Positions 1,821-59,376 of a DNA stretch of 64,000 bases are shown one piece after another. A program made the position numbers and the translations under genes. Position 1 is the first letter of the stretch, and each line of letters opens with the position of its first letter. This DNA is from a virus (Duplodnaviria > Caudoviricetes), in the IMG/VR virus record IMGVR_UViG_3300047400_000090, positions 22,008 to 86,007 of that record, one strand, 5' to 3'. The notes under the pieces were generated by a model. The model was not told where the DNA came from and made no database searches. It saw only the letters and a program-made list of their open reading frames with translations.

Positions 1821-2003
1821 CTACCATTTACATATCTGGAAGTTGGTCCAGTGCTTTCCTAGTCCACTTGTGCGGAGGCAGTTTTGGCCTGCCCAGGCGG
1901 CGATATTCCCATTGTCTTTCATTGCTCTCTTGGACCAGAGATTGATTGGGTAGTCGTCCTGCGCTGTTACATAGGCCCCGTTAAACATCATAAGGATTTT
2001 CAT
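1821..2003 (-). CDS. Micro-ORF, array A (MKILMMFNG..., 60 aa)
   Basis: Internal ATG of the track ORF; paralog of 1424-1621. Confidence 0.65.
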   Translation of the reverse strand: MKILMMFNGAYVTAQDDYPINLWSKRAMKDNGNIAAWAGQNCLRTSGLGKHWTNFQICKW

Positions 2004-2103
2004 TTTGGTAACCAATCTATTTCTGGTCTTCTTAAAGTTCATCCGTGAAGCAACTCTTTATGGTAATGCCCCAGATTAGCGGTACGGATAGGTAGCACTT
2101 CAT
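2000..2103 (-). pseudogene. Frameshifted micro-ORF, array A (MKCYLSVPLIW...; second frame ...RRPEIDWLPK*)
   Basis: The first frame stops after 23 aa (2032). The shifted frame ends WLPK-TGA, overlapping the next ATG as intact members do. Confidence 0.5.
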
Positions 2104-2246
2104 CTCACACGAGACCCTGGGTCATCCCCCTCTGGTGTTATAGCAAACTCATCCAGTAAAGAATCAACATAGACGTATGTACTCTTTTTTGAGCGAGTGA
2201 ACCACCTTGCGCTGGTGTATCCAAAAAGATAAATCCAATGTTTCAT
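2100..2246 (-). CDS. Micro-ORF, array A (MKHWIYLFG..., 48 aa)
   Basis: MKHWI start is identical to that of 23162-23434; ATGA overlap downstream. Confidence 0.65.
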   Translation of the reverse strand: MKHWIYLFGYTSARWFTRSKKSTYVYVDSLLDEFAITPEGDDPGSRVR

Positions 2247-2250
2247 ATAA

Positions 2251-2418
2251 TTACCACTTCGCAGCTTCTTCTTTGACTCCTTGAGACAAGTAGAAACGGC
2301 GCACCCCGTGTGCAAATCCTTTTCTGATATCCCAGACCATCCTGTCGTGGCACTTTGTGAAGTTAAGCATTAACTCATGGGGATATTCACAGAACAACAG
2401 GCTCATCCAGCACTTCAT
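2251..2418 (-). CDS. Micro-ORF, array A (MKCWMSLLFC...RRFY..., 55 aa)
   Basis: Translated by hand; its ATG overlaps the TGA of the vWA gene (ATGA). Confidence 0.65.
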   Translation of the reverse strand: MKCWMSLLFCEYPHELMLNFTKCHDRMVWDIRKGFAHGVRRFYLSQGVKEEAAKW

Positions 2419-3557
2419 TCTATCTCTAGCCTCTCTGCCCAGTCGGGGGTAGACTCCTTGGTGGTAATTGCCACAATCACCGGAACCGCAGGCTTAGAAG
2501 GCCAGTCGGTATAACCATCCGTGATGACAATAATCCCGTCTGCCTTCATCTTTAGCGCCGCCTCAATTCCCATGGTCATGCTAGTTCCGCCGCCGCCGAT
2601 GTGCTTCCCCTTGGTGTACCGTGTAACTGCCACATCGCAGTCCAGGATAATCACCGAAGGGAACAGTCGCTTAATTGATGCCAGTACCCCCAGAACCTTG
2701 GCCCCCTCGTTGCCCATTGAACCACTAGTATCGGCAACTGCCACAATCTTAGGGTTGTAGGCGATGAGCGATGGTCGAATGACTTGGTTGGCCTGCTGAC
2801 GACGGTGGAGCTTCCTGTATGAGTAATCCATGCGTCCACGGCAGGCTTCTTTGTGGGCACTAGAGATCCATAGCCGCATCAGTCTCGGCCATGGAGGCGT
2901 CATGTGCTTTAACTCGTCATCAGCCCACACCTCCACCCCAGCAGGTACCGATCCTTTGCCGTTCTTTTGAACGTAATCCTTAACGGCATTGGCGGTAGCC
3001 GTGCGTATGCCGTCCCCACTTACCTCATCGATGCCATCTTCTCCTGCCCCACCTTCCTTCTCGTACTCCTGGCGTGGACCACCAGCGCCGCTGCCGCAGC
3101 CTTTTCCGTTTGGCTGGGTATCTTGCGGCAGGTCGCGGTAGTACTCTTCTGCTGTAAGGTTGTCCGGTTGGCCGATTAGTGAAGGCAAAACAGCGCCATC
3201 TGGCAGCTTGCTTTTGTCGGCATCGTCGTTGATTTCACAGTCCCCGCAGATATTAAATAGATTATGATCACGAGGGCCGCAGCGTTTGTGGTGACGACGT
3301 AGCAGGTGCTCGATTTCGTGGGCAGTAATGACGTAGGCGCGTTTCTCTAGGGACAGGGCAGAGAACCACTCAAAATCGATGTACAGTCGCCAGTAAGGGT
3401 CAACCGCAATGGTTCCTAGGCCATCCACGGCCAGTGGCTTAAGGGGAGCGATGGCTACGGCGTAGTAGGGCCGCATTACCCGCGCTCCCAGGAGGGCCTC
3501 GGTTGCCATGTCTAGTTCGGACTGGGTTGGTTCTCGGTGTTGTAATAGTTGATTCAT
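2415..3557 (-). CDS. Putative metallopeptidase plus vWA domain protein (DUF2201-like), MoxR partner
   Basis: N-terminal HEIEH (HExxH); C-terminal MIDAS DTSGS...GGGT...IVITDGY. Confidence 0.88.
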   Translation of the reverse strand: MNQLLQHREPTQSELDMATEALLGARVMRPYYAVAIAPLKPLAVDGLGTIAVDPYWRLYIDFEWFSALSLEKRAYVITAHEIEHLLRRHHKRCGPRDHNLFNICGDCEINDDADKSKLPDGAVLPSLIGQPDNLTAEEYYRDLPQDTQPNGKGCGSGAGGPRQEYEKEGGAGEDGIDEVSGDGIRTATANAVKDYVQKNGKGSVPAGVEVWADDELKHMTPPWPRLMRLWISSAHKEACRGRMDYSYRKLHRRQQANQVIRPSLIAYNPKIVAVADTSGSMGNEGAKVLGVLASIKRLFPSVIILDCDVAVTRYTKGKHIGGGGTSMTMGIEAALKMKADGIIVITDGYTDWPSKPAVPVIVAITTKESTPDWAERLEIE

Positions 3558-5264: not shown

Positions 5265-5293
5265 ACTGTACAGCACTAACAAAACTTTATCAA
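5265..5293 (-). promoter_or_regulatory. sigma70-type promoter
   Basis: TTGATA-17 bp-TACAGT upstream of the 4857-5216/MoxR operon. Confidence 0.6.
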
Positions 5294-5446
5294 CATCTTC
5301 TGTCGCATTAAAAGGCTTTCTTTACCTCCTACCGCGTTGCTTCTGCTTGACTCGGCCACGAAGTAGTACTCCCTCTCGACTTGGGCAAACAGTCTCCAGT
5401 GGTTCCCCGCCAAGTCACAGTACATTAAATAGCGATATGGCTTCAT
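5276..5446 (-). CDS. Micro-ORF, array B (MKPYRYLMYC..., 56 aa)
   Basis: Translated by hand; ATGA overlap; MKPY start. Confidence 0.6.
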   Translation of the reverse strand: MKPYRYLMYCDLAGNHWRLFAQVEREYYFVAESSRSNAVGGKESLLMRQKMLIKFC

Positions 5447-5631
5447 CTAGACCTGCTGTTGTACTTTACCAGCGCTCTCTGTCTTGGCGTACGGGAAGCG
5501 ATGCAGGCACCATTAAACTCCCGAGAATCACTAAGTAAAGATATTATGCAATCCGTGCCGTGCTGGATTGCTAGAGCAAAGCACCCCAGGTCTCCGCTCT
5601 GCCAGTGAAGGCAGTAATGGTATGGCTTCAT
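5443..5631 (-). CDS. Micro-ORF, array B (MKPYHYCLHW..., 62 aa)
   Basis: MKPY start; CIAS motif; coupled to neighbours on both sides. Confidence 0.65.
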   Translation of the reverse strand: MKPYHYCLHWQSGDLGCFALAIQHGTDCIISLLSDSREFNGACIASRTPRQRALVKYNSRSR

Positions 5632-5789
5632 CATTTGTAGAATCTCCTGGTCCTTTTGTCATCTGGAAGATCGAAGATTTCCCTCATTATAGAAACGAAA
5701 TGAATCGGAATCCATCCCCTGGTATCGATTCTCTGATAGGCTACTCCGCGATGTCTGTAATTGGTTCCATACCAGAGTGACGTTCTCAT
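5631..5789 (-). CDS. Micro-ORF, array B (MRTSLWYG...RRFYK, 52 aa)
   Basis: Translated by hand; TAATG and TGATG overlaps; RRFY shared with 21069-21236 and 2251-2418. Confidence 0.6.
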   Translation of the reverse strand: MRTSLWYGTNYRHRGVAYQRIDTRGWIPIHFVSIMREIFDLPDDKRTRRFYK

Positions 5790-5971
5790 TAGCAATACTT
5801 CCTTGCGCTCCTGATTCTTAATTTACCCTTAGCTATCACGCGAAACAGAATCGCTTCGCTGGGAAGTATAGAAACAAGAGAAATCATTGTGCCCCCATTT
5901 CCGTTGACTCTTGAGACGTAGGCGACGTTATGGTATCCGTAATAAAGCGAAGACAACATGGCCGCTCTCAT
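5789..5971 (-). CDS. Micro-ORF, array B (MRAAMLSSLYY..., 60 aa)
   Basis: ORF track; ATGA overlap upstream. Confidence 0.55.
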   Translation of the reverse strand: MRAAMLSSLYYGYHNVAYVSRVNGNGGTMISLVSILPSEAILFRVIAKGKLRIRSARKYC

Positions 5972-19123: not shown

Positions 19124-21031
19124 CTATTTTGACTGTCCCCAAAGTTTGTCATATAGCTTATCTCTTGCTTCCTTGTAATTTTGATTGGTTTTATCGCCAC
19201 CACCTAGGAAGTTTTTCAGCAGGCTCTGGAAGTGTCCAAGTTGAACGTGATCGCCGTCAAGTTGGGCAGGATTAGCTATCATGTCGGAGATGAACTGATG
19301 TACTTTCCCGCTTAGTAGTTGGTTTACTTTTTTACCTTCTGATGCAGAAATTGCAGACAGTGGCCAGAGGTTATTTCCAACCTGAGATCCATACCCGGAA
19401 CCTTCTGGATGAAGACCAATGATGGCTCCGTTGTCTAGCATTTCCTGTGTTGGCTTTAATCCAACCCATGATCCAGATTGAGTAGTTGGTCCAGTAGAAG
19501 GAATCGGCTGTTCCTCCCATCCACCGCTGAGGTTGCCTGGTTCTTGTGCCGACTTCTTGGCAGAACTCCTTATTTCTCCTAAGTTTGGCCGCTCCTTAGG
19601 CATGCCTGGGGTGAAGTTTTCTGGCTGTAATCTCGGCAATTGGCGCAAGAACTCTGGGTCGAGCTTGCTGCGGATGGCCTGGGCCATGTTTTCCAGGGTT
19701 GGCTCAAAACTGGACGAGTAGGGATCCTTTGACTTAAAAATTGGCTTCCCATAGACAGCCTTATTGAACACCTCGGCGGCCTGACCTGGGTCTATCTTGA
19801 AATAACTTGCTATTGGTCCGCCGTCCATGGCGTAATAGTCAACAGGACCGCTGAATCTTCCGTCCCTAATGGCGTCCGGCAGTCCATTTACAAAAGTTCT
19901 TAGCCTATCCTGGTCACTAATTGCCTTAGCCATGCCGTTAGAGTTAAGTACTACTGAAGGCAGATCCGCTGGCTTAACTCTATCGGCCAGGAAGGGATCA
20001 AACATCTTACTACCTTGACGAACCCTATCGGTAATCATGTCGTGGAGCGACATTGACCTCTCAACTGGAATATCTAATCCGTTTTGAATGAACGACTTAA
20101 CGTGATCGAAGGTGATTGGATTATCCATCCACTTCTCAGCTTCTGATGTAAGTAGGTCTTTAGTCCAGGCGGCTAGTGGAGACTTTCCGATATCTTCCCT
20201 GAGCACCTTGGCGGCATCGATCATCTGCGGAGTACCGAACGCAGCTTCTACGTGGGGTTGATTTAAGACTACCTTCTGTAGGGTATTGGGGTTAAGCTGT
20301 ACTGGATTCTTGGTCTGATACTCAAACTCAAAGTCTGGGTTCATTTTTGCAAGATACGCAGGCGTATCGAAGCCAGTGCGCTGCGTCTTCCCGTACCCTG
20401 GATAGACAAACGGTTCCCCACCCGCCTCGGTAATAGCCGACGTCGGTAAGACTAGGCTAACATCGGTCCCAGTAGCCGAAGCCTTGGGGTTAATTGCCCC
20501 TACCCTAGAAACTGAGACCGGCCCCTTGAGCCTCATCCCACGGACAATCCCCTCTAGGTTAGGTAGCTTTGTAGCGTGGTAGACCGTATCACGGGCATTA
20601 ATTAGCTGGTTCAAGACCTCAGGAGATAGCTTATCCTTGGCTATCTGGCTCATGGCCCTTAGGACGTCATAACTCGGGAATCTACGCTCTGCTCCACCCT
20701 CTAGAACCTCTCCGGTAGGCGCTTCCTTGGTCAAAAGAGAGGCCAGGGAGGTAGCGGTACCCCATCCTGGGCTGGCCGACATTGCCATACCGGCCTGAAT
20801 CCCATTAATTACGTCCTGTAACCCAGGAACCGGTGCCGGAGTAGCTACTTCGTTCTTCTGGGACTGTAGTCCCTGGGGTTGGTTCTTGCGGTTGACCACG
20901 ACAGGAGGCGTGGCTGCTGCGGTACGTTGCGGTGATTGGGTTACTTGGGAGAGATAGGACTTATATTCCCCGTTGGGGTCCAGATAGAAGGCTAGAGGAG
21001 GGCCTTGCGGTTGTGGAGGATAACTAGCCAT
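19124..21031 (-). CDS. 635-aa hypothetical protein with P/Q-rich N-terminus
   Basis: Long ORF with GAGG SD; no confident family assignment. Confidence 0.8.
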   Translation of the reverse strand: MASYPPQPQGPPLAFYLDPNGEYKSYLSQVTQSPQRTAAATPPVVVNRKNQPQGLQSQKNEVATPAPVPGLQDVINGIQAGMAMSASPGWGTATSLASLLTKEAPTGEVLEGGAERRFPSYDVLRAMSQIAKDKLSPEVLNQLINARDTVYHATKLPNLEGIVRGMRLKGPVSVSRVGAINPKASATGTDVSLVLPTSAITEAGGEPFVYPGYGKTQRTGFDTPAYLAKMNPDFEFEYQTKNPVQLNPNTLQKVVLNQPHVEAAFGTPQMIDAAKVLREDIGKSPLAAWTKDLLTSEAEKWMDNPITFDHVKSFIQNGLDIPVERSMSLHDMITDRVRQGSKMFDPFLADRVKPADLPSVVLNSNGMAKAISDQDRLRTFVNGLPDAIRDGRFSGPVDYYAMDGGPIASYFKIDPGQAAEVFNKAVYGKPIFKSKDPYSSSFEPTLENMAQAIRSKLDPEFLRQLPRLQPENFTPGMPKERPNLGEIRSSAKKSAQEPGNLSGGWEEQPIPSTGPTTQSGSWVGLKPTQEMLDNGAIIGLHPEGSGYGSQVGNNLWPLSAISASEGKKVNQLLSGKVHQFISDMIANPAQLDGDHVQLGHFQSLLKNFLGGGDKTNQNYKEARDKLYDKLWGQSK

Positions 21032-21068
21032 CTACCTCTATTATAAGGATTTAGTGGCTCAAGCCTAA

Positions 21069-21236
21069 CTAAATTGTGGGTCGGTAGTAGAAGCGCCGCC
21101 TATCCCCGAACTCGCGGAACATGTGGGTGATGATGCGGTTGTTAAATCTGCACCTCATTTCAAACGACCAGTGGAACATTGGATTCTTGCTTGATATCAT
21201 TCTTCCCATGGTTAGTCCAGAAATCCAAGTCTTCAT
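21069..21236 (-). CDS. Micro-ORF, array C (MKTWISGLTM...RRRFYY, 55 aa)
   Basis: Translated by hand; ATGA overlap. Confidence 0.7.
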   Translation of the reverse strand: MKTWISGLTMGRMISSKNPMFHWSFEMRCRFNNRIITHMFREFGDRRRFYYRPTI

Positions 21237-21469
21237 GTGTACAGTTCCGGCATCTTGACTGGAGCTTTAATGATCGACCTTGCAGGAAGTGGACTAAACG
21301 TATCACTTGCAACTATGTAGCAACGATGCTTACCGGGCTCCCGGCACTGCCTACTTAGGGTAGATTCTAGTGTTCTAGATCCGTCAACTGACTCCGTTAT
21401 GGCGAAGATGCTACAGCCATTAAAGATGAACTGAGATGGTATGTTTAGGCTTCTTATCCATGGTTTCAT
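21233..21469 (-). CDS. Micro-ORF, array C (MKPWIRSL..., 78 aa)
   Basis: ORF track; ATGA overlaps. Confidence 0.7.
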   Translation of the reverse strand: MKPWIRSLNIPSQFIFNGCSIFAITESVDGSRTLESTLSRQCREPGKHRCYIVASDTFSPLPARSIIKAPVKMPELYT

Positions 21470-21690
21470 TTTGTGTACATCCTAACTCTCCCCATAAATC
21501 CAATTCCGTCTCTGGAGTAGACATCAAAGCAATGAAGCATTGAGGCATACACTACTCGCCTATAGTGACCACCCATGGTTCTTCCTCCGGTTGTACAGCA
21601 CCACGGATCACGACTTCTCATTGGGCCGTTCTTGATATTTACATATGGCTGGTAGTGGACGTAACTAATTGATGATATCCAGGGCTTCAT
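21466..21690 (-). CDS. Micro-ORF, array C (MKPWISSISY...GRVRMYTK, 74 aa)
   Basis: Clear paralog of the two upstream ORFs. Confidence 0.8.
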   Translation of the reverse strand: MKPWISSISYVHYQPYVNIKNGPMRSRDPWCCTTGGRTMGGHYRRVVYASMLHCFDVYSRDGIGFMGRVRMYTK

Positions 21691-21929
21691 TTTGTGTACA
21701 TCCTGACCCTACCGATAAATCCAGGGCCGTTTTTACAGTAGACATCTAGTAGTCCGCAGTTCTCAAATCCATGACGCATTGAGGCAAACACTACGTTCCT
21801 CTTTGATCCTCCAATGGTTATTCCTCCTGATTTCCCGCACCACGGATCTCTACTAATCATTACCCTGTTCCTAATTTTAAAGTATGGCTCGTAGTGGTTG
21901 TAGCTAATTGTAGACAGATATGGCTTCAT
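21687..21929 (-). CDS. Micro-ORF, array C (MKPYLSTISY...GRVRMYTK, 80 aa)
   Basis: Paralog; ATGA overlaps. Confidence 0.8.
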   Translation of the reverse strand: MKPYLSTISYNHYEPYFKIRNRVMISRDPWCGKSGGITIGGSKRNVVFASMRHGFENCGLLDVYCKNGPGFIGRVRMYTK

Positions 21930-22147
21930 TTTGTGTACATCCTGACTCTACCGACAAAGCAGTGTGGGTCTTTTAGTGGATCCATAACCAATGGAAACAG
22001 CGATGCATAAACTAAGTACCTCCCGGATCCTGTCCACGTTTTACCTCCAGACTTGGTAATGTACGGCATTATGTTCTTCATTGGCCCATCTCTGTTTGAC
22101 AGGTGCCTATAGTTAACGTAGGTAATTGTCGATATCCAGGGTTTCAT
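21926..22147 (-). CDS. Micro-ORF, array C (MKPWISTITY...GRVRMYTK, 73 aa)
   Basis: Paralog; ATGA overlaps. Confidence 0.8.
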   Translation of the reverse strand: MKPWISTITYVNYRHLSNRDGPMKNIMPYITKSGGKTWTGSGRYLVYASLFPLVMDPLKDPHCFVGRVRMYTK

Positions 22148-22380
22148 TTTGATCTGTTATAGGTCCTTATAAATGTCTGCCTGGATGATCCGTCTTTTGA
22201 TCTATCCAAGACTCGAATCACTGCCGAGGCGCAGGTCGCAACTACTCCATTAGCTGACTTAGCAGGACTTGACTTAAAGATATAATGCCTCTCGTTGCCG
22301 ATTGGATAACACGCCAGACATTGGTATACCGCCAAGGAGTTAATGTAGTGCGGGAGTGTCCAGCAGTAGTAGTGTTTCAT
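22144..22380 (-). CDS. Micro-ORF, array C (MKHYYCWTL..., 78 aa)
   Basis: N-terminus identical to 22377-22577. Confidence 0.75.
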   Translation of the reverse strand: MKHYYCWTLPHYINSLAVYQCLACYPIGNERHYIFKSSPAKSANGVVATCASAVIRVLDRSKDGSSRQTFIRTYNRSK

Positions 22381-22577
22381 CGGTTCCTCATAATAACGCC
22401 TCTACGGTGACATGGTAATGCGCTCCAGCAAGAGGCGTAGCAGGCGAAAAAATAATCGCTCATTGATATCAGGTCAACTGTGTAATTGGCTCCATTTTGG
22501 TTTCCGATTTTAGACCAATGAAAATGTGTGGATATATTGCATGCGTCCCTGGTCGTCCAGCAGTAGTAGTGTTTCAT
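22377..22577 (-). CDS. Micro-ORF, array C (MKHYYCWTTRD...MRNR, 66 aa)
   Basis: ACYAS motif; ATGA overlaps. Confidence 0.75.
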   Translation of the reverse strand: MKHYYCWTTRDACNISTHFHWSKIGNQNGANYTVDLISMSDYFFACYASCWSALPCHRRGVIMRNR

Positions 22578-22804
22578 CGGTTTCTGAGTAGCATCCCTCC
22601 CTTAGTGTGATACGGATGGGTGTAGCCTGAAGCGTAGCATGAACAAATGGTACCGGCGGAGGTTGACAAAGTATCAATGTGGGTATCTACTCCATGGATT
22701 TTGCCGACCTTTGTAAACATGTCGTACACCACGGAGAGCCTCCCCTCTATGGCTTGGGAAATAATTGCGTCCCTGGTAGTCCAGCAGTAGAGAAAGTTCT
22801 TCAT
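22574..22804 (-). CDS. Micro-ORF, array C (MKNFLYCWTTRD...LRNR, 76 aa)
   Basis: Internal ATG of the track ORF; SCYAS motif. Confidence 0.75.
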   Translation of the reverse strand: MKNFLYCWTTRDAIISQAIEGRLSVVYDMFTKVGKIHGVDTHIDTLSTSAGTICSCYASGYTHPYHTKGGMLLRNR

Positions 22805-22986
22805 TTTGTCCTTAGTATCATGCCAGATCTCCATGGGATGGCGTCCCTATAGCACGAGGCCCACTCCACTAGAACACCATCTCTTGACTGAGTTGATGTC
22901 CAGATAGACTTAGCGGTTAGTGCCATGGTCCATAAATTGGCATAGGTAGAGTCTCTGGTGGTTAGCCCCTGCAGGTAACTCTTCAT
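22801..22986 (-). CDS. Micro-ORF, array C (MKSYLQGLTTRD..., 61 aa)
   Basis: ASCYR motif; ATGA overlaps. Confidence 0.75.
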   Translation of the reverse strand: MKSYLQGLTTRDSTYANLWTMALTAKSIWTSTQSRDGVLVEWASCYRDAIPWRSGMILRTK

Positions 22987-23165
22987 ACGACCCTAGTGTG
23001 CATCCCTCTACGGCCTGCCGGAACCGACCTATAGCACGAGGCGAACTCAGCCACAATTCCATTGCCTGAAGAATATGAATTGAAGAAACTCCATTGAAGA
23101 TCAACAAGAGAACTATACACAATTTTAGAGTCTCTGTAGGTTATCGATCTAAGCCACTGCCTCAA
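22983..23165 (-). CDS. Micro-ORF, array C (MRQWLRSITYRD..., 60 aa)
   Basis: ASCYR motif; ATGA overlaps. Confidence 0.75.
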   Translation of the reverse strand: MRQWLRSITYRDSKIVYSSLVDLQWSFFNSYSSGNGIVAEFASCYRSVPAGRRGMHTRVV

Positions 23166-23434
23166 AATTCACCTACCTTGCTAGATCTCCAGCCAATCTT
23201 TGGGTAATAGTGCCATGCCATGCTGTCTGTTCTGGCGTAAGACGCCAAGACGCATCCATATAACCCATTCAAAATGCTAGCTTTACTCTGCATTGAGACA
23301 AGTATCTTGCTTTGCTGTGTGACGCTCCCAGACAGATAGATCGTCGCCTTGGTAGTGGCACACCATACTGGAATCTCTCCCGTTGACCAGTACCTGTGGC
23401 CAGCAAACGGTAATGCTGTAATCCAGTGTTTCAT
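23162..23434 (-). CDS. Micro-ORF, array C (MKHWITAL..., 90 aa), first gene after the internal promoter
   Basis: LASYA motif. Confidence 0.75.
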   Translation of the reverse strand: MKHWITALPFAGHRYWSTGEIPVWCATTKATIYLSGSVTQQSKILVSMQSKASILNGLYGCVLASYARTDSMAWHYYPKIGWRSSKVGEF

Positions 23435-23438
23435 TACA

Positions 23439-23462
23439 GATTAGTCCAGTACTGGAGTGATT
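23439..23462. promoter_or_regulatory. Palindrome copy between the array promoter and its first ATG (operator candidate)
   Basis: GATTAGTCCAGTACTGGAGTGATT. Confidence 0.75.
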
Positions 23463-23485
23463 CTGAGGTGCCAACCATAAGCTGA

Positions 23486-23514
23486 AGTATAGCCAGTTAT
23501 TATCTACATGTCAA
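23486..23514 (-). promoter_or_regulatory. Strong sigma70-type promoter inside array C
   Basis: TTGACA-17 bp-TATACT. Confidence 0.8.
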
Positions 23515-23680
23515 CCTTAATCACGTCCTGTCTTTACTGGAGGGAATAGAAACAGGAGTAAACATTCAAGAGAGCAGCACCGGATCGCAGCGTTGCTTAT
23601 GCTGCTTCTGACTGGGCCGAAATAAAGATACGATCTCACGTCTATCGAGACAGGCTCTCATTGGTAATTACAATACTACC

Positions 23681-23854
23681 CTAGACATCAAACTTTGGCA
23701 ACCATTGCCACTCTAGGCTGGCATAGCTAGCCGCTCCGAATGGACTAGTTAGAGAGCTTGCGTTGGGAGCCACCCTGTGCGCTAAAACCCAGGACATAAT
23801 TTCGCAAGGGCCAGTGCCCCATACATGGCATGACGACATTAAGAAGTGTTTCAT
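23681..23854 (-). CDS. Micro-ORF, array C (MKHFLMSS...ASYAS...WLPK, 57 aa)
   Basis: Translated by hand; ATGA overlap. Confidence 0.7.
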   Translation of the reverse strand: MKHFLMSSCHVWGTGPCEIMSWVLAHRVAPNASSLTSPFGAASYASLEWQWLPKFDV

Positions 23855-24057
23855 AATACGTAGTACGGGAACCTGCCTTTAAAGGACGTATAGCAGCAAT
23901 AGGCACCTAGTGACCCATTGCTGCCGTGCCTAGAGACAGTGCTAAGTAGTTCTATTCCAATTCCTGACTGATGGGCAGATGTAACCCATTTCTTATGCGC
24001 TCCCGGTATTCCCTTGCGGTAGTGCGGACTAACTAGTCCGATTAGGTATGGTTTCAT
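23851..24057 (-). CDS. Micro-ORF, array C (MKPYLIGL..., 68 aa)
   Basis: ORF track; ATGA overlaps. Confidence 0.7.
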   Translation of the reverse strand: MKPYLIGLVSPHYRKGIPGAHKKWVTSAHQSGIGIELLSTVSRHGSNGSLGAYCCYTSFKGRFPYYVL

Positions 24058-24215
24058 AAGAATCTACTAGATCTAAACCACCAACCGGCTTGGCAGAATG
24101 ATACCGCCTTACTGTCCCATCCTGGGTCTTCTAAGAACACCTGACGCAAATAAGTGCAGTACCTGTAGCACTTATTTGCGGTATCCATTACAGGGCAGTA
24201 CATCCAGATCTTCAA
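24054..24215 (-). CDS. Micro-ORF, array C (MKIWMYCP..., TTG start, 53 aa)
   Basis: Internal TTG of the track ORF; resembles MKAWMYLP upstream. Confidence 0.6.
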   Translation of the reverse strand: MKIWMYCPVMDTANKCYRYCTYLRQVFLEDPGWDSKAVSFCQAGWWFRSSRFL

Positions 24216-24217
24216 AG

Positions 24218-24403
24218 TCACCCCACCCTCTCCGCGTACACCTGCTCTTCCGCCGCCGAGAACCTGTGCCCGTCTCGAATAACCTTTACAGAGGCCCCGT
24301 TCGCCCATCCTTTGCCGGTAATACAATGAGACTCTATTTGAAATCCATCCATTGAACAAGTTTCGCTTGTTCTCATCCACGGTAAATACATCCAGGCTTT
24401 CAA
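24218..24403 (-). CDS. Micro-ORF, array C (MKAWMYLP..., TTG start, 61 aa)
   Basis: TTGA overlap with the upstream stop. Confidence 0.6.
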   Translation of the reverse strand: MKAWMYLPWMRTSETCSMDGFQIESHCITGKGWANGASVKVIRDGHRFSAAEEQVYAERVG

Positions 24404-24609
24404 TATGCCCTCCTTGGGAAGACTCTCATGGATCCTACGTGATGGGCGTGCTGTCGAGTAGGTTGACAGTACGCCCATGACTGTAGCCCAATATTGTTTG
24501 TGTATGCTCTCGATAACATAGAGACACCCTCATGAAAGCCTCTTGCGGTTACCATTACACTTCGGGTTGACGGCTCATAGCCGTGGAATAGAGCCATGTA
24601 GACTTTCAT
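24400..24609 (-). CDS. Micro-ORF, array C (MKVYMAL..., 69 aa)
   Basis: Internal ATG one base after the upstream stop. Confidence 0.7.
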   Translation of the reverse strand: MKVYMALFHGYEPSTRSVMVTARGFHEGVSMLSRAYTNNIGLQSWAYCQPTRQHAHHVGSMRVFPRRAY

Positions 24610-24610
24610 C

Positions 24611-24793
24611 CTAGTCGGTATCCCAGTGGTAAAGTCTTTTCTTCCATAGCCTCTCATTGTTATCTATAACCAAATAAAGCAGCGAGGCCGCCAGAGCAAG
24701 CCATCGCCCTCTGGCCCTGCTCTTTCTGGCGTATAGGTTGAACCACTTGGCAGACTGCTCATGGCTCATAACGGTCATTAGGTAGGCTTTCAT
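24611..24793 (-). CDS. Micro-ORF, array C (MKAYLMT...LWKKRLYHW, 60 aa)
   Basis: Shares the LWKxRLYxW C-terminus with the two upstream ORFs. Confidence 0.75.
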   Translation of the reverse strand: MKAYLMTVMSHEQSAKWFNLYARKSRARGRWLALAASLLYLVIDNNERLWKKRLYHWDTD

Positions 24794-24978
24794 ACCTCGT
24801 GCAACCAGTGATACAGTCGATTTTTCCACAATTCATCACTTTTTATTGTGAATTGCTTAATTGATGCAGCAGTGGAATAGTAAGACGAGGATGCACTTTC
24901 GAAGGTGTACATTACCAATCCCTTACTTAGCAATTTCGTCCAGCTTGGGCCGATCCCGGTCATGTTATAAACTTTCAT
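24790..24978 (-). CDS. Micro-ORF, array C (MKVYNMTG...LWKNRLYHW, 62 aa)
   Basis: Paralog of its neighbours. Confidence 0.75.
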   Translation of the reverse strand: MKVYNMTGIGPSWTKLLSKGLVMYTFESASSSYYSTAASIKQFTIKSDELWKNRLYHWLHEV

Positions 24979-24979
24979 G

Positions 24980-25147
24980 TTAGCCCCATCGGTACAACCG
25001 CTCCTTCCATAGCTTCTTATCAGGCGGAACAAGACTAACTATCGATGGACTCATAACTGTCCACATTGCAATGGAGCTAATCCTTGTATACCAGCAAAAG
25101 CGGTCTGATATCATCTTCTCCGGCCCTGCCATGTTATAGACTTTCAT
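24980..25147 (-). CDS. Micro-ORF, array C (MKVYNMAG...LWKERLYRW, 55 aa)
   Basis: Paralog of its neighbours. Confidence 0.75.
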   Translation of the reverse strand: MKVYNMAGPEKMISDRFCWYTRISSIAMWTVMSPSIVSLVPPDKKLWKERLYRWG

Positions 25148-25148
25148 T

Positions 25149-25340
25149 CTATCTCTCAAATCTCCCAGGGAAGTCAATAATAGCCTTGGCCCAGTGTGTA
25201 AATAACTGTCCACCATAAGCATAACTACAGGAGGTGGAGATGCAAGAAATTGGTAGATTGTAAGATGTTGCAGACAGCCGCATAGCCATGTGCCTACTAG
25301 TAACTACAAGGCCAGCCGGGAGAACCAAGTGCGATTTCAC
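25149..25340 (-). CDS. Micro-ORF, array C (MKSHLVL..., GTG start, 63 aa), probably leaderless
   Basis: GTG lies 7 nt after the -10 box; SCSYAY motif. Confidence 0.6.
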   Translation of the reverse strand: MKSHLVLPAGLVVTSRHMAMRLSATSYNLPISCISTSCSYAYGGQLFTHWAKAIIDFPGRFER

Positions 25341-25347
25341 AAATCTA

Positions 25348-25376
25348 ATCTTATAGCTAGACGGATGGCCTGTCAA
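25348..25376 (-). promoter_or_regulatory. sigma70-type promoter heading array C
   Basis: TTGACA-17 bp-TAAGAT. Confidence 0.75.
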
Positions 25377-25396
25377 CTTGGATGATATAATTAGGC

Positions 25397-25756
25397 ATGG
25401 CTAAAACGCCTAAGTATCTCTGCGACAACCCTAATCCCCATGTCCGCAGGAGATGCAAAGACTGCATCAGGATCTACAATAAACTCCACCTTGAGCGAAA
25501 GAAAGCCACTACCAAAGCCAGAAAAGAAGCCGCCAAGGCTCTCGGCCTAGATCGACTCCCTAGAATCAAGAAACCTAGAAAGATTACTACCCCACGGCCA
25601 GTCTATAGAGACCTCATGGAAGAGTGGATTAGAATCAAGTCTCACATGGAGCTTAACCCCGAGGACAAGAGGATCCTAACCGGAGCCATTACCGAGGCAA
25701 CCAAGGTGGATCTCTTGGATGAAATAGCGGCAGAATTTAGTCCAGTCCTGGAGTGA
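25397..25756 (+). CDS. Basic hypothetical protein with Cys/His cluster
   Basis: C...H...CKDC; divergent from array C; a palindrome copy (25736-25759) spans its stop. Confidence 0.6.
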   Translation: MAKTPKYLCDNPNPHVRRRCKDCIRIYNKLHLERKKATTKARKEAAKALGLDRLPRIKKPRKITTPRPVYRDLMEEWIRIKSHMELNPEDKRILTGAITEATKVDLLDEIAAEFSPVLE

Positions 25757-29003: not shown

Positions 29004-32000
29004 TTGGCCTTAGACGCCACTAAAAATTTCGCCAAGGCTACTGTCTCTCAGGGATACAGTTCCTCGGCAACGACCATTGTTCTCAAGACTGGCGATGGGG
29101 CCAAGATGCCTACGGCACCGTTCAATGCCGTCTGGTGGAACGATACAACCTACGCCGACCCATCTGATGACCCATATGTTGAAATAGTTAGGGTTACTGC
29201 TGTCTCTGGGGATACTTTAACTATTACCAGAGCGCAGGAAAGTACGGCTGCGGCTGACCATAACATCACTGGACGTGTTTATAAGTTTGTGGCTGGTGTT
29301 ACCGCCCTACTGCCCCAGACCATCAACACCTATATCGGTCCTCTACTTACCCCGCAGAACGCCAACACCGTACTAGCTGGACCCACGACTGGCTCTGCCG
29401 CCGTAGCGGCCTTCAGGGCACTGGTTGCCGCAGACATGCCTGCTGGCGTAGTTACTTCGGTAGTCAACGACACTAACGTCACTGGTACAGTTGTCTCTGG
29501 GGTAATGACCCTGGGATGGACTGGGACCCTAGCAGCGGCACGACTTAACTCTAATGTCGTACAGTCGGTAACCAATGACACTAACATCACTGGATCGATC
29601 TCTGCCCAGGCCCTCACCCTGGGATGGACCGGCACTCTAGCCAAGGCTCGCCAGTACTCGGGGACGGTCTATAACGATCAGGCTAATACCTTTGGATCCG
29701 GCCTAAAGCAGACCTTTACCACTAGCGCCACTACTGCTGGACTCAATCTAGTGGCCGTTACTGCCAATCCTTCCTCCCCTGCCTCGGGGGATATTTGGTT
29801 TAGGAGCGATACCGGGCAGGTCTACTTCTATGACACCGCCGTCAGGCAACTTGTCAGGACCGATGTAGCCACCCTCTCCAGCCTTGCCTCCATTGGGACT
29901 ATTACTACAGGAATCTGGAATGGCACTGTAGTTGCAGTAACTTACGGTGGAACAGGGGTATCTACCGCCTCAGCTAACGTAGTCTTCTCAGGGCCTACTA
30001 CCGGAGCGGCTGCTGCCCCCTCGTTCCGTGCTCTAGTTACGGCTGATATGCCCAGTTCGGTGGCTACCTCGGTGGTCAATGACACGAACGTCACTGGTTC
30101 GATTGCCTCAAATGTCTTCACTCTTGGCTGGACAGGCACTCTTGCCGTCAATCGTGGTGGAATTGGGACTGGTACGGCTGGGATTGGTGCCTTTAACAAC
30201 ATAACTGGCTATACCGCCGCAGGGGCAACGGGAACCACCTCTACCAACCTAGTTTTCTCGACTAGCCCAGCACTAACCACCCCCACGGTAACCACCTCTG
30301 CGATTCTGTCTAATAACAGCCTTGGAGCGGCTACCGCCGATGGTTATGTACTACAGAACACTACGGCGGCGGCGGCAGGGGCGCAGCAATGGTCTCCAAA
30401 TCTTCACTTCAAGGGGCAGGGATGGAAGACAAACGCTACTGCAGCCTCGCAAGCTGTTGAATTTAGGGAATATCTAGTCCCGGTTCAGGGTGCAGCCAAT
30501 CCCAGTGGAACGTTGTACTGGGATTCTCAGGTTAATAGTGGCGGCTGGGTCAATCAAATGACCCTAACATCTTCCGGGGTACTCAGTGTGCCCACTGGTG
30601 GATCTTATCAGATTAATGGCGCTAATGTCCTAACGGCAACCACTCTTGGATCTGGAGTGATTAACTCCTCACTGACGTCCCTGGGAACGATTGCCACAGG
30701 TGTCTGGAATGGCACAAAGATTGGCTTGGCCTATGGCGGCACAAACGCAGACCTAAGCGCCACCGGCGGGACGAGTCGAGTCCTGATGCAGACCTCCACC
30801 GGGGCTAACATCTCTGTGGCTCAATTGGCAGCTTCGGACCTGAGTAACGGAGTAACCGGCTCTGGATTGGTGGTTCTTGGGACTAGTCCGACCTTAACGA
30901 CTAGCGGTACGGTTAGCTCGACGTCAATTGGCACTGCCCAGACTGCTGGATGGACCGTACAAAACACCACCGCTGCAGCGGCGGGAGCCCAGCAGTTCTC
31001 TCCCATGGTGGTCTTAACGGGCTATGGCTGGAAGACTAATGCCACAGCGGCGTCTCAGGAAGTTGATTTTGCACTCCAAACCCAACCAGTGCAGGGAGCA
31101 GCCAACCCCACGGGAAATCTGATTCTCTATAATCAGGTCAATGGCGGTGGCTGGAACACGCTACTGACTGTCCCTAGTGGCGGGAACCTTAACCTAAACT
31201 CAGGATCCTACCAAATCGGCGGGACATCGGTACTTAGTTCATCTACTCTTGGATCTGGAGTAACCGCCTCCTCTTTGACCTCGGTAGGCACTATTGCTAC
31301 CGGAACCTGGAATGGTTCTGTAATTACGGTGGCTTATGGCGGAACTGGGCAGTCTACCTTTACTAAAGGTGACATCCTGGTCGCTACCGGGTCTACGACT
31401 CTTACTAAGCTGGCAGTAGGCACGGATAATTACATCCTAACTGCCGACTCGGCGCAGGCGTCTGGCGTGAAGTGGGCAGCCAATACTGGTGGAGCGGCTG
31501 CTAGTCAGGCTCTTGATAACCTAGTCTCGGTAAACATCAACGCTTCGCTTCTTTTCCAGACCGGACTAGATGTCGGTTCTGCTGCCAAGGCCGCTAGGAA
31601 TTTGTACCTTTATGGGGCTGGCACTTATGGGACAACTAGCTTTAAGCTTGATGGTACACCTACCGCCGCAAGAACGTTAACCTTTCAGGATGCTTCCTAC
31701 ACGGTCATTGGTCGAGATACCACCGATACCCTAACCAATAAGACCTACGATACAGCTGGCACGGGCAATACCTTTAAGATCAATGGAACTACGATCTCTG
31801 CCGTTACTGGCACGGGGTCGGTGGTCTTGGCTACGTCACCTACTCTGGTTACGCCGGTCTTGGGCACGCCAACCAGCGGCACTCTGACTAATTGCACTGG
31901 GCTGCCTATCTCTACTGGAGTTAGCGGGCTTGGAACTGGTGTCGCAACTTTCCTTGCTACCCCTTCCAGCGCGAATCTAGCATCGGCGTTGACGGACAAG

Positions 32001-34139
32001 ACTGGAACGGGGGTAAGCGTATTCGGGACTGCTCCGACATTGTCGAGCGTCACTTCAGACAGAATTACTCTTACTGGTGCCGTTTCCGCGACGGCTTGGG
32101 GCACTGCGGGTATCCCTCTTAGAGTGGTGGCGTCCACTTACACCGACACGTCAAGCAGTGGAACCGTGGCGACCGCAATGATGAATACTATTGGTATTCC
32201 AACCATAGCGGCGTCCTCTACTGTAACTTTTACCGATGCGGCAACCTTCTATATTGCTGATAAGCCTACGGCTGGATCTAACGTAACACTAACCAACTCC
32301 TGGGCTGCATATTTTGCTTCTGGTAACAGTTACATGGCTGGCGGCCTTCAAATCGGGTCGGGAAGTTTCCCTGATAAGCTCACAGTCAACGGCGATCAAG
32401 GCCTATATGGAACGTCCGGCACTAGGAAATTTACAATCAAAAACACGGGCAGCGGTACGGGCGATAATGCCCGTTTGATACTCCAGAATGATAGTGGCGC
32501 GAATAACCAAGCGATATGGGCAAACTACTCCTCTGGGTATACCGGGACGGCCTTCGGTATCACGGTAGCAAACTGGGTTCTGCTAGACATTTCAGGAGGG
32601 TCTAATCAAGGATTAATTATCGGCAATGAGTCAAACAAGCCAATCGTCTTTGGCACCAATAACGCCGAGCAAATGCGCCTCATGGCCACCGGGAATTTGG
32701 TATCTGGGTCTACGACAGACGGGAACTACAGGTTGGATGTAGCCAAGAGTGGATCTAGCGGAACTTTCCGTGTTTATGATGCGACCGCCACAACAGGAGT
32801 AACGCAGTGCATCGTGAAGGCTGGAGCAGGGCAAAGCACAACGTCGATCTTCTCCGTACAAGATAATAGTGCAAACACTTTGTTGTCTGTCGTATCCAGT
32901 GGAACTAGTTATTACGCCCCATCGAGCAACTCCACCACGGCATGGCAATTCCGAACCGCTGCCGGTGGAAACATCTTCAACGTAGATTCAACTAACGGAA
33001 GAATTGGGATTGGGACAAACGCTCCTGGAGCACTTCTAGACATAAATGCAAACAGTGTTTCACTTAGCCCAGGTGCGCGCCTGTTGAGCGGTAACACTGC
33101 TAACTATATCGGATTTTCAGTAGGTCGAGCGGCGGAGGAGATTAGTATTGCGGCTGCTGCTGGCGCGGACCAATTCCTAACTGGAACAGTGGCCGGAAGC
33201 GGCGTAGTTGCTTCAAAAAATGACCTGTACCTAGGGACTGGACTGACTGTTGGATCTGTTGTAGGAACGGCCCAAATGAAATTGTCTACTGGTTCGGGGA
33301 CATCGTGGATTAGACCCGTAACCAACTCTACTACGGCGTGGCAGTTCCAGAACGCGGCGGGAACCTCCTTTGCAAATTTCGACTCCACGAACGCTGTTGC
33401 GACTTTAGCAAACAACGGCACAGTCGGTGTCGGAATATCCTTCCAGAGAATTTCTTCTCAGTACGGGCAATTGGCATGGAATACATATGGCAGTTCATAT
33501 TCAGCAGGGGCCACAGGTTATGGTGCAATTTTTGAGCTTAATGAATCATCCGGAACATTTTCATACTACACAGGTAGCAGCGTTACGGCGGGCAGCAATC
33601 ACGTAAATACAAACACCTTCAGCTTAGCTGCTGGATCTGGGACAACTTGGTTTCGGCCAGTAACAGATTCTACTACGGCGTTCCAGTTGAGGAATGCAGC
33701 AGGAACTGGCATTTTCACTGTCGATACGACTAATAGTCTAATACTGATTGGAGCTACCTCCGCCCTTCATAATACGGTATCCAAGCTAGAGGTTCGCGGA
33801 GGAAGAACCTATATCTCCTCTGGTGGCGATACCTACGCCCTAGGATTATTATATAACGACGCGGCCAATGGGCAATTCTTCCTTGGAGCGTCAAATAGTG
33901 CTACCCCAGACCTAATATTATCAAACAATGCCGGAACAGAGATTGCCCGTTTCGCTAACAGCGGTAACGTGGGAATAGGGGTTTCTTCTTTCGGTACTTC
34001 TGCGGTAGGCGTTATAGGCATTGCTAACGGGACCGCGCCATCTTCTTCTCCGGCCAGCATGGGACAGCTTTATGTCGAATCTGGTGCTCTGAAGTATAGA
34101 GGATCTGGAGGCACGGTAACTACAATTGCAGCAGCCTAA
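29004..34139 (+). CDS. Long tail fibre/spike protein (1711 aa) with internal repeats
   Basis: T/S/G/A-rich; VVNDTNVTG-like x4, AAAGAQQ.SP...GWKTNATAASQ x2, STTA(W/F)Q x3. Confidence 0.8.
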   Translation: MALDATKNFAKATVSQGYSSSATTIVLKTGDGAKMPTAPFNAVWWNDTTYADPSDDPYVEIVRVTAVSGDTLTITRAQESTAAADHNITGRVYKFVAGVTALLPQTINTYIGPLLTPQNANTVLAGPTTGSAAVAAFRALVAADMPAGVVTSVVNDTNVTGTVVSGVMTLGWTGTLAAARLNSNVVQSVTNDTNITGSISAQALTLGWTGTLAKARQYSGTVYNDQANTFGSGLKQTFTTSATTAGLNLVAVTANPSSPASGDIWFRSDTGQVYFYDTAVRQLVRTDVATLSSLASIGTITTGIWNGTVVAVTYGGTGVSTASANVVFSGPTTGAAAAPSFRALVTADMPSSVATSVVNDTNVTGSIASNVFTLGWTGTLAVNRGGIGTGTAGIGAFNNITGYTAAGATGTTSTNLVFSTSPALTTPTVTTSAILSNNSLGAATADGYVLQNTTAAAAGAQQWSPNLHFKGQGWKTNATAASQAVEFREYLVPVQGAANPSGTLYWDSQVNSGGWVNQMTLTSSGVLSVPTGGSYQINGANVLTATTLGSGVINSSLTSLGTIATGVWNGTKIGLAYGGTNADLSATGGTSRVLMQTSTGANISVAQLAASDLSNGVTGSGLVVLGTSPTLTTSGTVSSTSIGTAQTAGWTVQNTTAAAAGAQQFSPMVVLTGYGWKTNATAASQEVDFALQTQPVQGAANPTGNLILYNQVNGGGWNTLLTVPSGGNLNLNSGSYQIGGTSVLSSSTLGSGVTASSLTSVGTIATGTWNGSVITVAYGGTGQSTFTKGDILVATGSTTLTKLAVGTDNYILTADSAQASGVKWAANTGGAAASQALDNLVSVNINASLLFQTGLDVGSAAKAARNLYLYGAGTYGTTSFKLDGTPTAARTLTFQDASYTVIGRDTTDTLTNKTYDTAGTGNTFKINGTTISAVTGTGSVVLATSPTLVTPVLGTPTSGTLTNCTGLPISTGVSGLGTGVATFLATPSSANLASALTDKTGTGVSVFGTAPTLSSVTSDRITLTGAVSATAWGTAGIPLRVVASTYTDTSSSGTVATAMMNTIGIPTIAASSTVTFTDAATFYIADKPTAGSNVTLTNSWAAYFASGNSYMAGGLQIGSGSFPDKLTVNGDQGLYGTSGTRKFTIKNTGSGTGDNARLILQNDSGANNQAIWANYSSGYTGTAFGITVANWVLLDISGGSNQGLIIGNESNKPIVFGTNNAEQMRLMATGNLVSGSTTDGNYRLDVAKSGSSGTFRVYDATATTGVTQCIVKAGAGQSTTSIFSVQDNSANTLLSVVSSGTSYYAPSSNSTTAWQFRTAAGGNIFNVDSTNGRIGIGTNAPGALLDINANSVSLSPGARLLSGNTANYIGFSVGRAAEEISIAAAAGADQFLTGTVAGSGVVASKNDLYLGTGLTVGSVVGTAQMKLSTGSGTSWIRPVTNSTTAWQFQNAAGTSFANFDSTNAVATLANNGTVGVGISFQRISSQYGQLAWNTYGSSYSAGATGYGAIFELNESSGTFSYYTGSSVTAGSNHVNTNTFSLAAGSGTTWFRPVTDSTTAFQLRNAAGTGIFTVDTTNSLILIGATSALHNTVSKLEVRGGRTYISSGGDTYALGLLYNDAANGQFFLGASNSATPDLILSNNAGTEIARFANSGNVGIGVSSFGTSAVGVIGIANGTAPSSSPASMGQLYVESGALKYRGSGGTVTTIAAA

Positions 34140-59374: not shown

Positions 59375-59376
59375 AC

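Follow-up and report, generated by a model that had tools for sequence, protein, structure and literature searches.

Twenty very small genes, chained head to tail on the minus strand, occupy positions 21069–25340 of the DNA analysed here, a 64,000-nucleotide (nt) stretch of an uncultured aquatic tailed phage that we refer to as the window. The window comprises bases 22008–86007 of an 86,007-bp virus record that is about 85% complete; proteins identical to the record's own were found on contigs as long as 96,954 bp. The array is the first 4.3 kb of a leftward arm in which minus-strand genes run from about position 25340 down into replication functions, including a metallophosphoesterase, a MoxR-type ATPase, a split DnaG primase, DnaB, ThyX and an RNA ligase. 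This arm diverges from rightward genes that start at 25397 and encode a SprT-like protein, an amidase, terminase, portal, the major head (capsid) protein and three giant proteins.

Layout and expression of the array

The open reading frames (ORFs), designated m1–m20, encode polypeptides of 53–90 aa and form two blocks, an upper one with m1–m9 (23681–25340) and a lower one with m10–m20 (21069–23434). All 20 back-to-back ORFs and the N-termini listed in an earlier note on this DNA are present. Within the blocks, each of the 18 junctions is a 4-nt overlap or a gap of 1–2 nt; in 500 dinucleotide shuffles, ORFs of 50 aa or more were coupled in this way at 0.19 junctions on average and at 3 at most. 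The lower block was reported to contain only ATGA overlaps. Four-base stop/start overlaps indeed occur at 10 of its 10 junctions, nine as ATGA and one as TTGA, so the claim was slightly overstated because m11 starts with TTG. Junction spacings in the upper block are, in order, +1, +1, −4, +1, −4, +2, −4 and −4. Non-ATG starts occur in m1, m6, m7 and m11 (Table 1). Eight members, rather than the five noticed before, are hidden within longer calls in a plain ORF list, and the gene callers used for public contigs recovered only 10–11 of the 20.

A promoter scan found a near-consensus sigma70 promoter in front of each block, as the earlier note had also stated (Table 1). Most array members lack a Shine–Dalgarno sequence, and many long genes of the phage have good AGGAG sites. 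Host sigma70 RNA polymerase would fire from the two promoters, and by their geometry each transcript would start at the start codon or no more than about 2 nt from it, and therefore be a leaderless mRNA. Because most members lack a Shine–Dalgarno sequence, ribosomes would move down the chain by termination–reinitiation at the ATGA/TTGA overlaps. Leaderless transcripts combined with termination–reinitiation thus appear to be the simplest reading of the layout. A TATAAT box also lies 5–8 nt before the start of the first rightward gene (ATG at 25397; 25386–25399) and of the 635-aa gene that follows the array (ATG at 21031; 21031–21052); leaderless starts may be a general early strategy of this phage.

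Fourteen copies of the palindrome TCCAG-NN-CTGGA are present in the window, where shuffles predict 0.03, at sites spanning positions 725–61473 (for example 19088, 23445, 25741, 40744, 45267 and 53145). One copy, TCCAGTACTGGA, lies between the lower-block promoter and m10. The palindrome probably binds a regulator, which at this site just downstream of the second promoter would switch the lower block off. As a set, the sites resemble a genome-wide operator network of one phage regulator.

Table 1. Positions of the array genes, their control elements and the sister arrays. Window coordinates are given unless stated otherwise.
Feature	Position	Strand	Remarks
Upper-block promoter	25348..25376	-	TTGACA (25376-25371), 17-nt spacer, TAAGAT (25353-25348), 10/12; m1 GTG 7 nt past -10 box
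m1	25149..25340	-	63 aa; GTG start uncertain, in-frame ATGs at codons 18 and 20
m2	24980..25147	-	55 aa; paralog group m2-m4 with common C-terminal L-W-K-x-R-L-Y motif
m3	24790..24978	-	62 aa; paralog group m2-m4
m4	24611..24793	-	60 aa; paralog group m2-m4
m5	24400..24609	-	69 aa; singleton
m6	24218..24403	-	61 aa; TTG start after AAGGAGG; pairs with m7
m7	24054..24215	-	53 aa; TTG start after purine-rich Shine-Dalgarno-like run
m8	23851..24057	-	68 aa
m9	23681..23854	-	57 aa; final upper-block gene
Inter-block spacer	23515..23680	-	two hairpins; possible weak terminator (putative)
Lower-block promoter	23486..23514	-	TTGACA-17-TATACT, 11/12; ATG 7 nt past -10 box
Leader ORF	23434..23478	-	14 codons, at predicted transcript 5' end; TAA overlaps m10 ATG by one base (TAATG)
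Palindrome	23445..23456	.	inside leader ORF; probable operator (predicted)
m10	23162..23434	-	90 aa
m11	22983..23165	-	60 aa; TTG start (TTGA overlap); pairs with m12
m12	22801..22986	-	61 aa
m13	22574..22804	-	76 aa; orthologs in L009 and L017
m14	22377..22577	-	66 aa; between direct repeats; missing in L009, L017, L018
m15	22144..22380	-	78 aa; orthologs in L009 and L017
m16	21926..22147	-	73 aa; in m16-m18 triplication; ortholog in L017
m17	21687..21929	-	80 aa; in m16-m18 triplication; missing in L017, L018
m18	21466..21690	-	74 aa; in m16-m18 triplication; missing in L017, L018
m19	21233..21469	-	78 aa; directly after m16 ortholog in L017, L018
m20	21069..21236	-	55 aa; last unit; 37 nt then 635-aa orphan gene
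Array 1	G000:C1:5153-6449 (L007), outside window		six or seven micro-ORFs between Zn-ribbon and Toprim genes of split DnaG primase
Three more chained micro-ORF arrays	1248-2418, 5276-5971; G000:C1:16208-17548 (L008)	same	

The 20-gene array is one of five of this gene type (array 5), which together hold about 45 genes and take up about a tenth of the phage genome. Sister array 1 is joined to both primase genes by ATGA overlaps. Many members of the three further arrays start with M-K-x-W/Y, and some instead share M-M-F-N-G or M-T-T-A.

Selection and protein features

Variant proteins for ortholog comparisons were obtained from short contigs of other samples by profile search and cluster look-up. 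Over 78 ungapped codons, m15 and its ortholog on contig L009 differ by 27 synonymous and 14 nonsynonymous changes, distributed over the codon positions as 5, 9 and 27, with a ratio of nonsynonymous to synonymous substitution rates (dN/dS, omega) of 0.09; against the ortholog on contig L017 omega was 0.14. For m16 and its L017 ortholog omega was 0.10 (changes by codon position 4, 4 and 17), and for m13 and its two orthologs 0.19 and 0.27. In sister array 1 the member a1_3 gave 0.08, compared to 0.03 for the flanking primase gene. Third-position changes are in 3- to 5-fold excess, and omega is 0.08–0.27 in the five members with informative orthologs. In-array paralog pairs also change most at third codon positions (omega about 0.3–0.5 where measurable), and the array genes exceed the primase gene in dN by a factor of 4 to 25. 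Because ortholog omega is low and changes are concentrated at third positions, the members are protein-coding genes under purifying selection that evolve faster than their neighbours.

The earlier note held that its reading would be refuted if orthologs showed no purifying selection, and the opposite was found. Its description of a rapidly diversifying repertoire stands as far as fast turnover of the gene set among related contigs is concerned, and does not as regards positive selection, of which there is no sign (omega 0.08–0.5). The four contigs that carry m18 (L003–L006) are 100% identical to the window across 12–20 kb, and hence no population signal for array 5 can be drawn from them. In metatranscriptome contigs of one aquatic study, pieces of m13, m16–m19 and other parts of the genome are present at a depth of 2–7, which indicates presence in RNA libraries only, not transcription, strand or level.

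The conserved ends and variable middles of the units might also suggest a non-coding repeat array, with structured RNAs, tRNA-like genes or CRISPR- or integron-like cassettes, or a recoded long gene, and four upper-block units fold somewhat better than shuffled sequences (z −2 to −3.5). However, there is no excess of RNA structure over the array as a whole (mean z about 0 over 20 units, +1.6 for m17–m18), the array contains no tRNA or Rfam family match, and no stop reassignment opens a long frame across it. Since divergence is codon-position-specific, the ortholog comparisons already contradict this explanation, and its probability is close to nil. Two further candidates were rejected. The 86-kb record has no match to the reverse transcriptase family RVT_1, with working controls, so the genes are not targets of a diversity-generating retroelement. 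An array of precursors of ribosomally synthesized and post-translationally modified peptides, which would show a long conserved leader, a hypervariable core and a modifying enzyme close by, was dismissed as the conserved N-terminal part comprises 5 residues and the neighbouring genes encode an orphan 635-aa protein, the metallophosphoesterase and the SprT-like protein.

A different possibility is that the DNA is translated filler, duplicated and kept open for ribosome passage (mRNA protection or ribosome delivery downstream) or for filling the capsid, with the peptide sequence being irrelevant. The amino-acid composition is near random-codon expectation, AlphaFold2 yields no fold, the sister-array chain joins both halves of the primase operon through overlaps, and tandem duplication is one proposed way in which the genomes of jumbo phages grow (PMC5646251). 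Filler would nevertheless need no more than the absence of stops, whereas these proteins show the low omega and third-position excess described above and conserve internal motifs (N-G, [aromatic/C]-A-S and a basic tail). This makes the filler explanation highly improbable.

The array proteins are basic, with a mean net charge of +5 and a pI of about 9.7 (8.8–11.5 in 18 of the 20), and 11–23% of their residues are aromatic. C, H, W, M and Y occur at 1.8–3.2 times the level in long genes, in agreement with the earlier remark that the interiors are rich in W, Y, C and M, and D, E, Q and N at about half that level. The (A/S/C)-x-Y-A-S or ASCY motif described for many members was recovered as [aromatic/C]-A-S in 11 of 20. 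A joint alignment hints at a loose common plan of start signature, N-G turn, [aromatic/C]-A-S and basic tail.

The common start is M-[KR]-x-[WYF]-[ILM]. Its first four positions follow 27 of 80 eligible ATGs in the arrays of the genome as compared to 7 of 597 elsewhere (Fisher p = 3e-21), and are found in none of the 39 long genes; an equal frequency in other short ORFs, which the earlier note had listed as part of a refuting result, was not observed. The signature codons vary synonymously: lysine is encoded by AAA 17 times and by AAG 14 times, tyrosine by TAC and TAT, and Ile, Leu or Met at position 5 by at least seven codons. The signature is kept at the amino-acid level.

The start could still be an expression signal instead of a protein feature, if unrelated small genes had converged on ATG-AAR-NNN-T(G/A)N-(A/C)TN for reinitiation after an overlapping stop. 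An A-rich second codon favours initiation, and most members, having no Shine–Dalgarno sequence, depend on coupling. Furthermore, profiles link no groups of members beyond the start, and an unrelated ligase-like gene joined to the chain in L009 also begins with M-K-P. The 'family' would then be only a packing mode for orphan genes. On the other hand, positions 4 and 5 keep their class (aromatic, then I/L/M) through different codons, which an RNA signal does not require, and the ATGA-coupled long genes of this genome lack the signature. We regard an expression signal as unlikely; it would concern the signature alone and is compatible with the functional explanation that we prefer below.

Relationships among members and turnover between phages

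All pairs of members with a BLASTP E-value below 1e-3 are neighbours or next-but-one (2-3-4, 6-7, 11-12, 13-14-15 and 16-17-18), in line with the earlier observation that neighbours resemble each other more than distant members do. The array contains direct repeats with periods of 180–240 nt, and the copies are mostly less than 40% identical. Neighbouring genes are diverged tandem duplicates, and expansion by tandem duplication was correctly proposed. The treatment of the 20 members as one family did not hold. A held-out profile of m10–m19 reached m8 with E = 0.024, whereas m20, m6, m9, m5 and m4 gave values of 0.4–9, level with random frames, so that beyond the five-residue start it links neither the upper block nor m20 nor the other arrays to its own group. 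The array-1 profile finds no array-5 member, and the array-1 and array-5 profiles do not retrieve each other. Because these held-out tests fail, we treat the 20 members as several young paralog groups with a common five-residue start and not as one demonstrated family.

Searches of 5.8 billion clustered proteins and of 1.84 billion representatives found no homologs outside the phage lineage. An exhaustive profile search of the representatives returned only the phage's own members and strain variants, and m18 alone retrieved only itself. Likewise, GenBank phages gave no match in a DNA search with the array or in tblastn with m18, IMG/VR scans with the 635-aa neighbour, the terminase and m15 gave no relatives, and JGI metagenome contigs gave no match in an m15 alignment scan or a scan for the junction DNA pattern. 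The ESM Atlas provided no usable match, and the array proteins matched nothing in Pfam, PHROGs or the PDB. An AlphaFold2 prediction for m15 from a 23-row alignment gave no usable model, with a predicted local distance difference test (pLDDT) score of 48.

The earlier note proposed that copy number, order and dN/dS be compared in relatives. Units are missing from L009, L017 and L018, and omega is 0.09–0.27 for the orthologs in L009 and L017. In L017 and L018 the order is m13-m15-m16-m19, with exactly m14 and m17–m18 missing, and in L009 it is m13-m15 followed by a ligase-like gene. In the window m14 is flanked by 31-nt direct repeats that are 97% identical, and m17–m18 is bounded by the junction repeats D2 and D4, of 42 to 71 nt. 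At each breakpoint the sequence of L017/L018 aligns to both repeat copies. The junction repeats are conserved gene ends, which include the C-terminal basic tail, the stop/start overlap and the M-K-x-aromatic start. Because unit loss falls exactly at these short repeats, the comparison indicates that units are gained and lost by unequal homologous recombination at the coding junctions, which are conserved.

The m15 ortholog of L009 runs, over the same ATGA junction, into a gene that has a K-L-D-G ligase motif and begins M-K-P (L009:462-593). This ATP-dependent-DNA-ligase-like gene is a fragment matching Pfam DNA_ligase_A_M with E = 0.01; homology to the window ends within its first three codons, and tblastn found no counterpart in the 86-kb record.

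Sister array 1 varies as well. Its members a1_1 and a1_2 are replaced in four contigs (L013–L016) by alleles that are 47% identical at the protein level and give no BLASTN match, in flanks that are 99.7% identical, and L015 has extra units. A comparison of G000:C1:1-3000 with L011 showed strains that are otherwise identical over 15.8 kb and differ in patches at 1-1000, 2000-3000 and 5533-5659, a pattern typical of recombination tracts that derive from a diverged lineage.

As for the surroundings of the array, the 635-aa protein directly 3' of it (19124-21031) has no Pfam or PHROG match and only itself as homolog among the 5.8 billion clustered proteins. Three giant ORFs of the structural arm (29004-34139, 1711 aa; 53270-59374, 2034 aa; 59347-63846, 1499 aa) have no PHROG match, and the 1711-aa ORF, the only one scanned against Pfam, gave no match there.

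Possible function and relation to known systems

Our preferred explanation, to which we assign a probability of roughly 60%, is that the two blocks are early operons for about 20 small, basic, aromatic-rich proteins that act early in infection as strain-variable binders of host macromolecules. From their context, the products would act early in the host cytoplasm, in host takeover or counter-defence. A net charge of about +5 with 11–23% aromatics would fit nucleic-acid or acidic-protein targets. Takeover or counter-defence by binding of such targets would be the most likely class of function because of the strong host-type promoters, the small size, the positive charge and aromatics, and the turnover at strain level.

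Several points weigh against this explanation. We infer the early timing from promoter type and gene order only, and an effector, host-takeover or counter-defence function from promoter position, size, charge and turnover. The other four arrays of this type are located among replication genes, so the type is not confined to the early end and 'early effector' may describe it too narrowly. The proteins have no homologs beyond the lineage, no matches in the family and structure databases and a low pLDDT. Their amino-acid composition is nearer to random-codon expectation than that of the phage's long genes, and GC content at first codon positions is atypical (0.39 vs 0.52 in long genes). The GTG of m1 would be a poor start at a leaderless 5' end. 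Finally, m1, m5, m8, m9, m10, m19 and m20 have no informative paralog or ortholog, so that their coding status is carried by the chain alone.

Packaging offers another role for small basic proteins. The internal proteins of T4 are highly basic and highly diverse, and have in common only a capsid-targeting sequence (CTS) of about 10 residues at the N terminus, MKTYQEFIAE (PMC8442874, PMC3012670). The M-K-x-aromatic start could similarly be an address tag that loads the array proteins into the capsid for co-injection. The CTS begins with M-K-x-Y (PMC8442874, PMC3012670), and the array members are small, basic (mean +5) and variable, with only the start in common and kept at the protein level. 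The resemblance, however, is limited to the first four positions: only M-K-x-[WYF] fits, positions 5–10 are hydrophobic or polar and not Q-E-F-I-A-E, and neither an acidic helix nor a Glu cleavage site comes next. PHROG matches among the structural-arm proteins and Pfam S78, with working controls, revealed no prohead protease, in a record that is about 85% complete; Pfam S77 gave no match on the whole record, and neither did its control. Moreover, none of the five arrays is located among virion genes; all are on the early/replication strand, behind sigma70-type promoters, and about 45 members would compete for capsid space. Packaging is thus very unlikely. In a more general form, which we consider decidedly unlikely, M-K-x-aromatic-hydrophobic would be an address tag handing a set of at least 45 small basic proteins, varying between strains, to one machine, either the capsid or a single host or phage factor, with the gene ends doubling as recombination joints for shuffling of the library. 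If this were true, the start would extend the T4 internal-protein principle to a second case, in an unrelated phage.

Arrays of small paralogs in tandem have been recorded for phages G and 121Q (PMC5646251). These resemble the present array in having many small head-to-tail genes that arose by tandem duplication and have no assigned function (PMC5646251). They differ in that the copies here are mostly less than 40% identical, fall into several groups and occur in an 86- to 97-kb phage, with stop/start overlap chaining, apparently leaderless starts, a five-residue signature and five arrays. In the hyperplastic regions of T4-type phages, small orphan genes behind early promoters turn over through recombination (Arbiol et al. 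2010, PMC2839356). As in the present case, they are clusters of small genes, there non-essential orphans, behind strong sigma70-like early promoters, with content that varies among close relatives via recombination at short conserved sequences (PMC2839356). The PeSL units of those regions are non-coding cassettes of promoter and stem-loop terminator between genes (PMC2839356), whereas here the recombining repeats are coding gene ends. PeSL cassettes were rejected for this array, which has two strong promoters for 20 genes and no terminator-like hairpins at its junctions. The T4 internal proteins share with the array proteins small size, high basicity, diversity and a short M-K-x-Y-type N-terminal motif (PMC8442874, PMC3012670), and differ in the rest of the CTS and the cleavage site, which are absent here, and in belonging to the head genes rather than to early/replication operons.

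In host-takeover modules such as the terminal-repeat module of SPO1 and the class I genes of T7, many small genes lie directly behind strong host-type early promoters. The array shares with them a block of small genes behind strong host-type promoters at the start of the infection programme; the SPO1 and T7 genes are non-paralogous, have their own strong ribosome-binding sites and lack a common N-terminal signature.

New in this phage are an unrelated set of proteins with an N-terminal signature at the protein level, an expression design that is apparently leaderless and overlap-chained, coding junctions that serve as recombination joints, and the expansion of one gene type into five arrays, one of them inside the primase operon.

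The phage spends about a tenth of its genome on micro-proteins of which standard gene callers find only half and which databases do not recognise at all. The array shows how such genes can do without ribosome-binding sites, being expressed by way of starts that appear leaderless and of stop/start chaining, and how they can multiply and be lost by recombination at conserved coding junctions while purifying selection persists amid strain turnover. Were host factors or defence proteins to be the binding targets of the members, the set would represent a natural library of small inhibitors. The array adds a well-documented case to a repeatedly observed class of phage micro-gene arrays.

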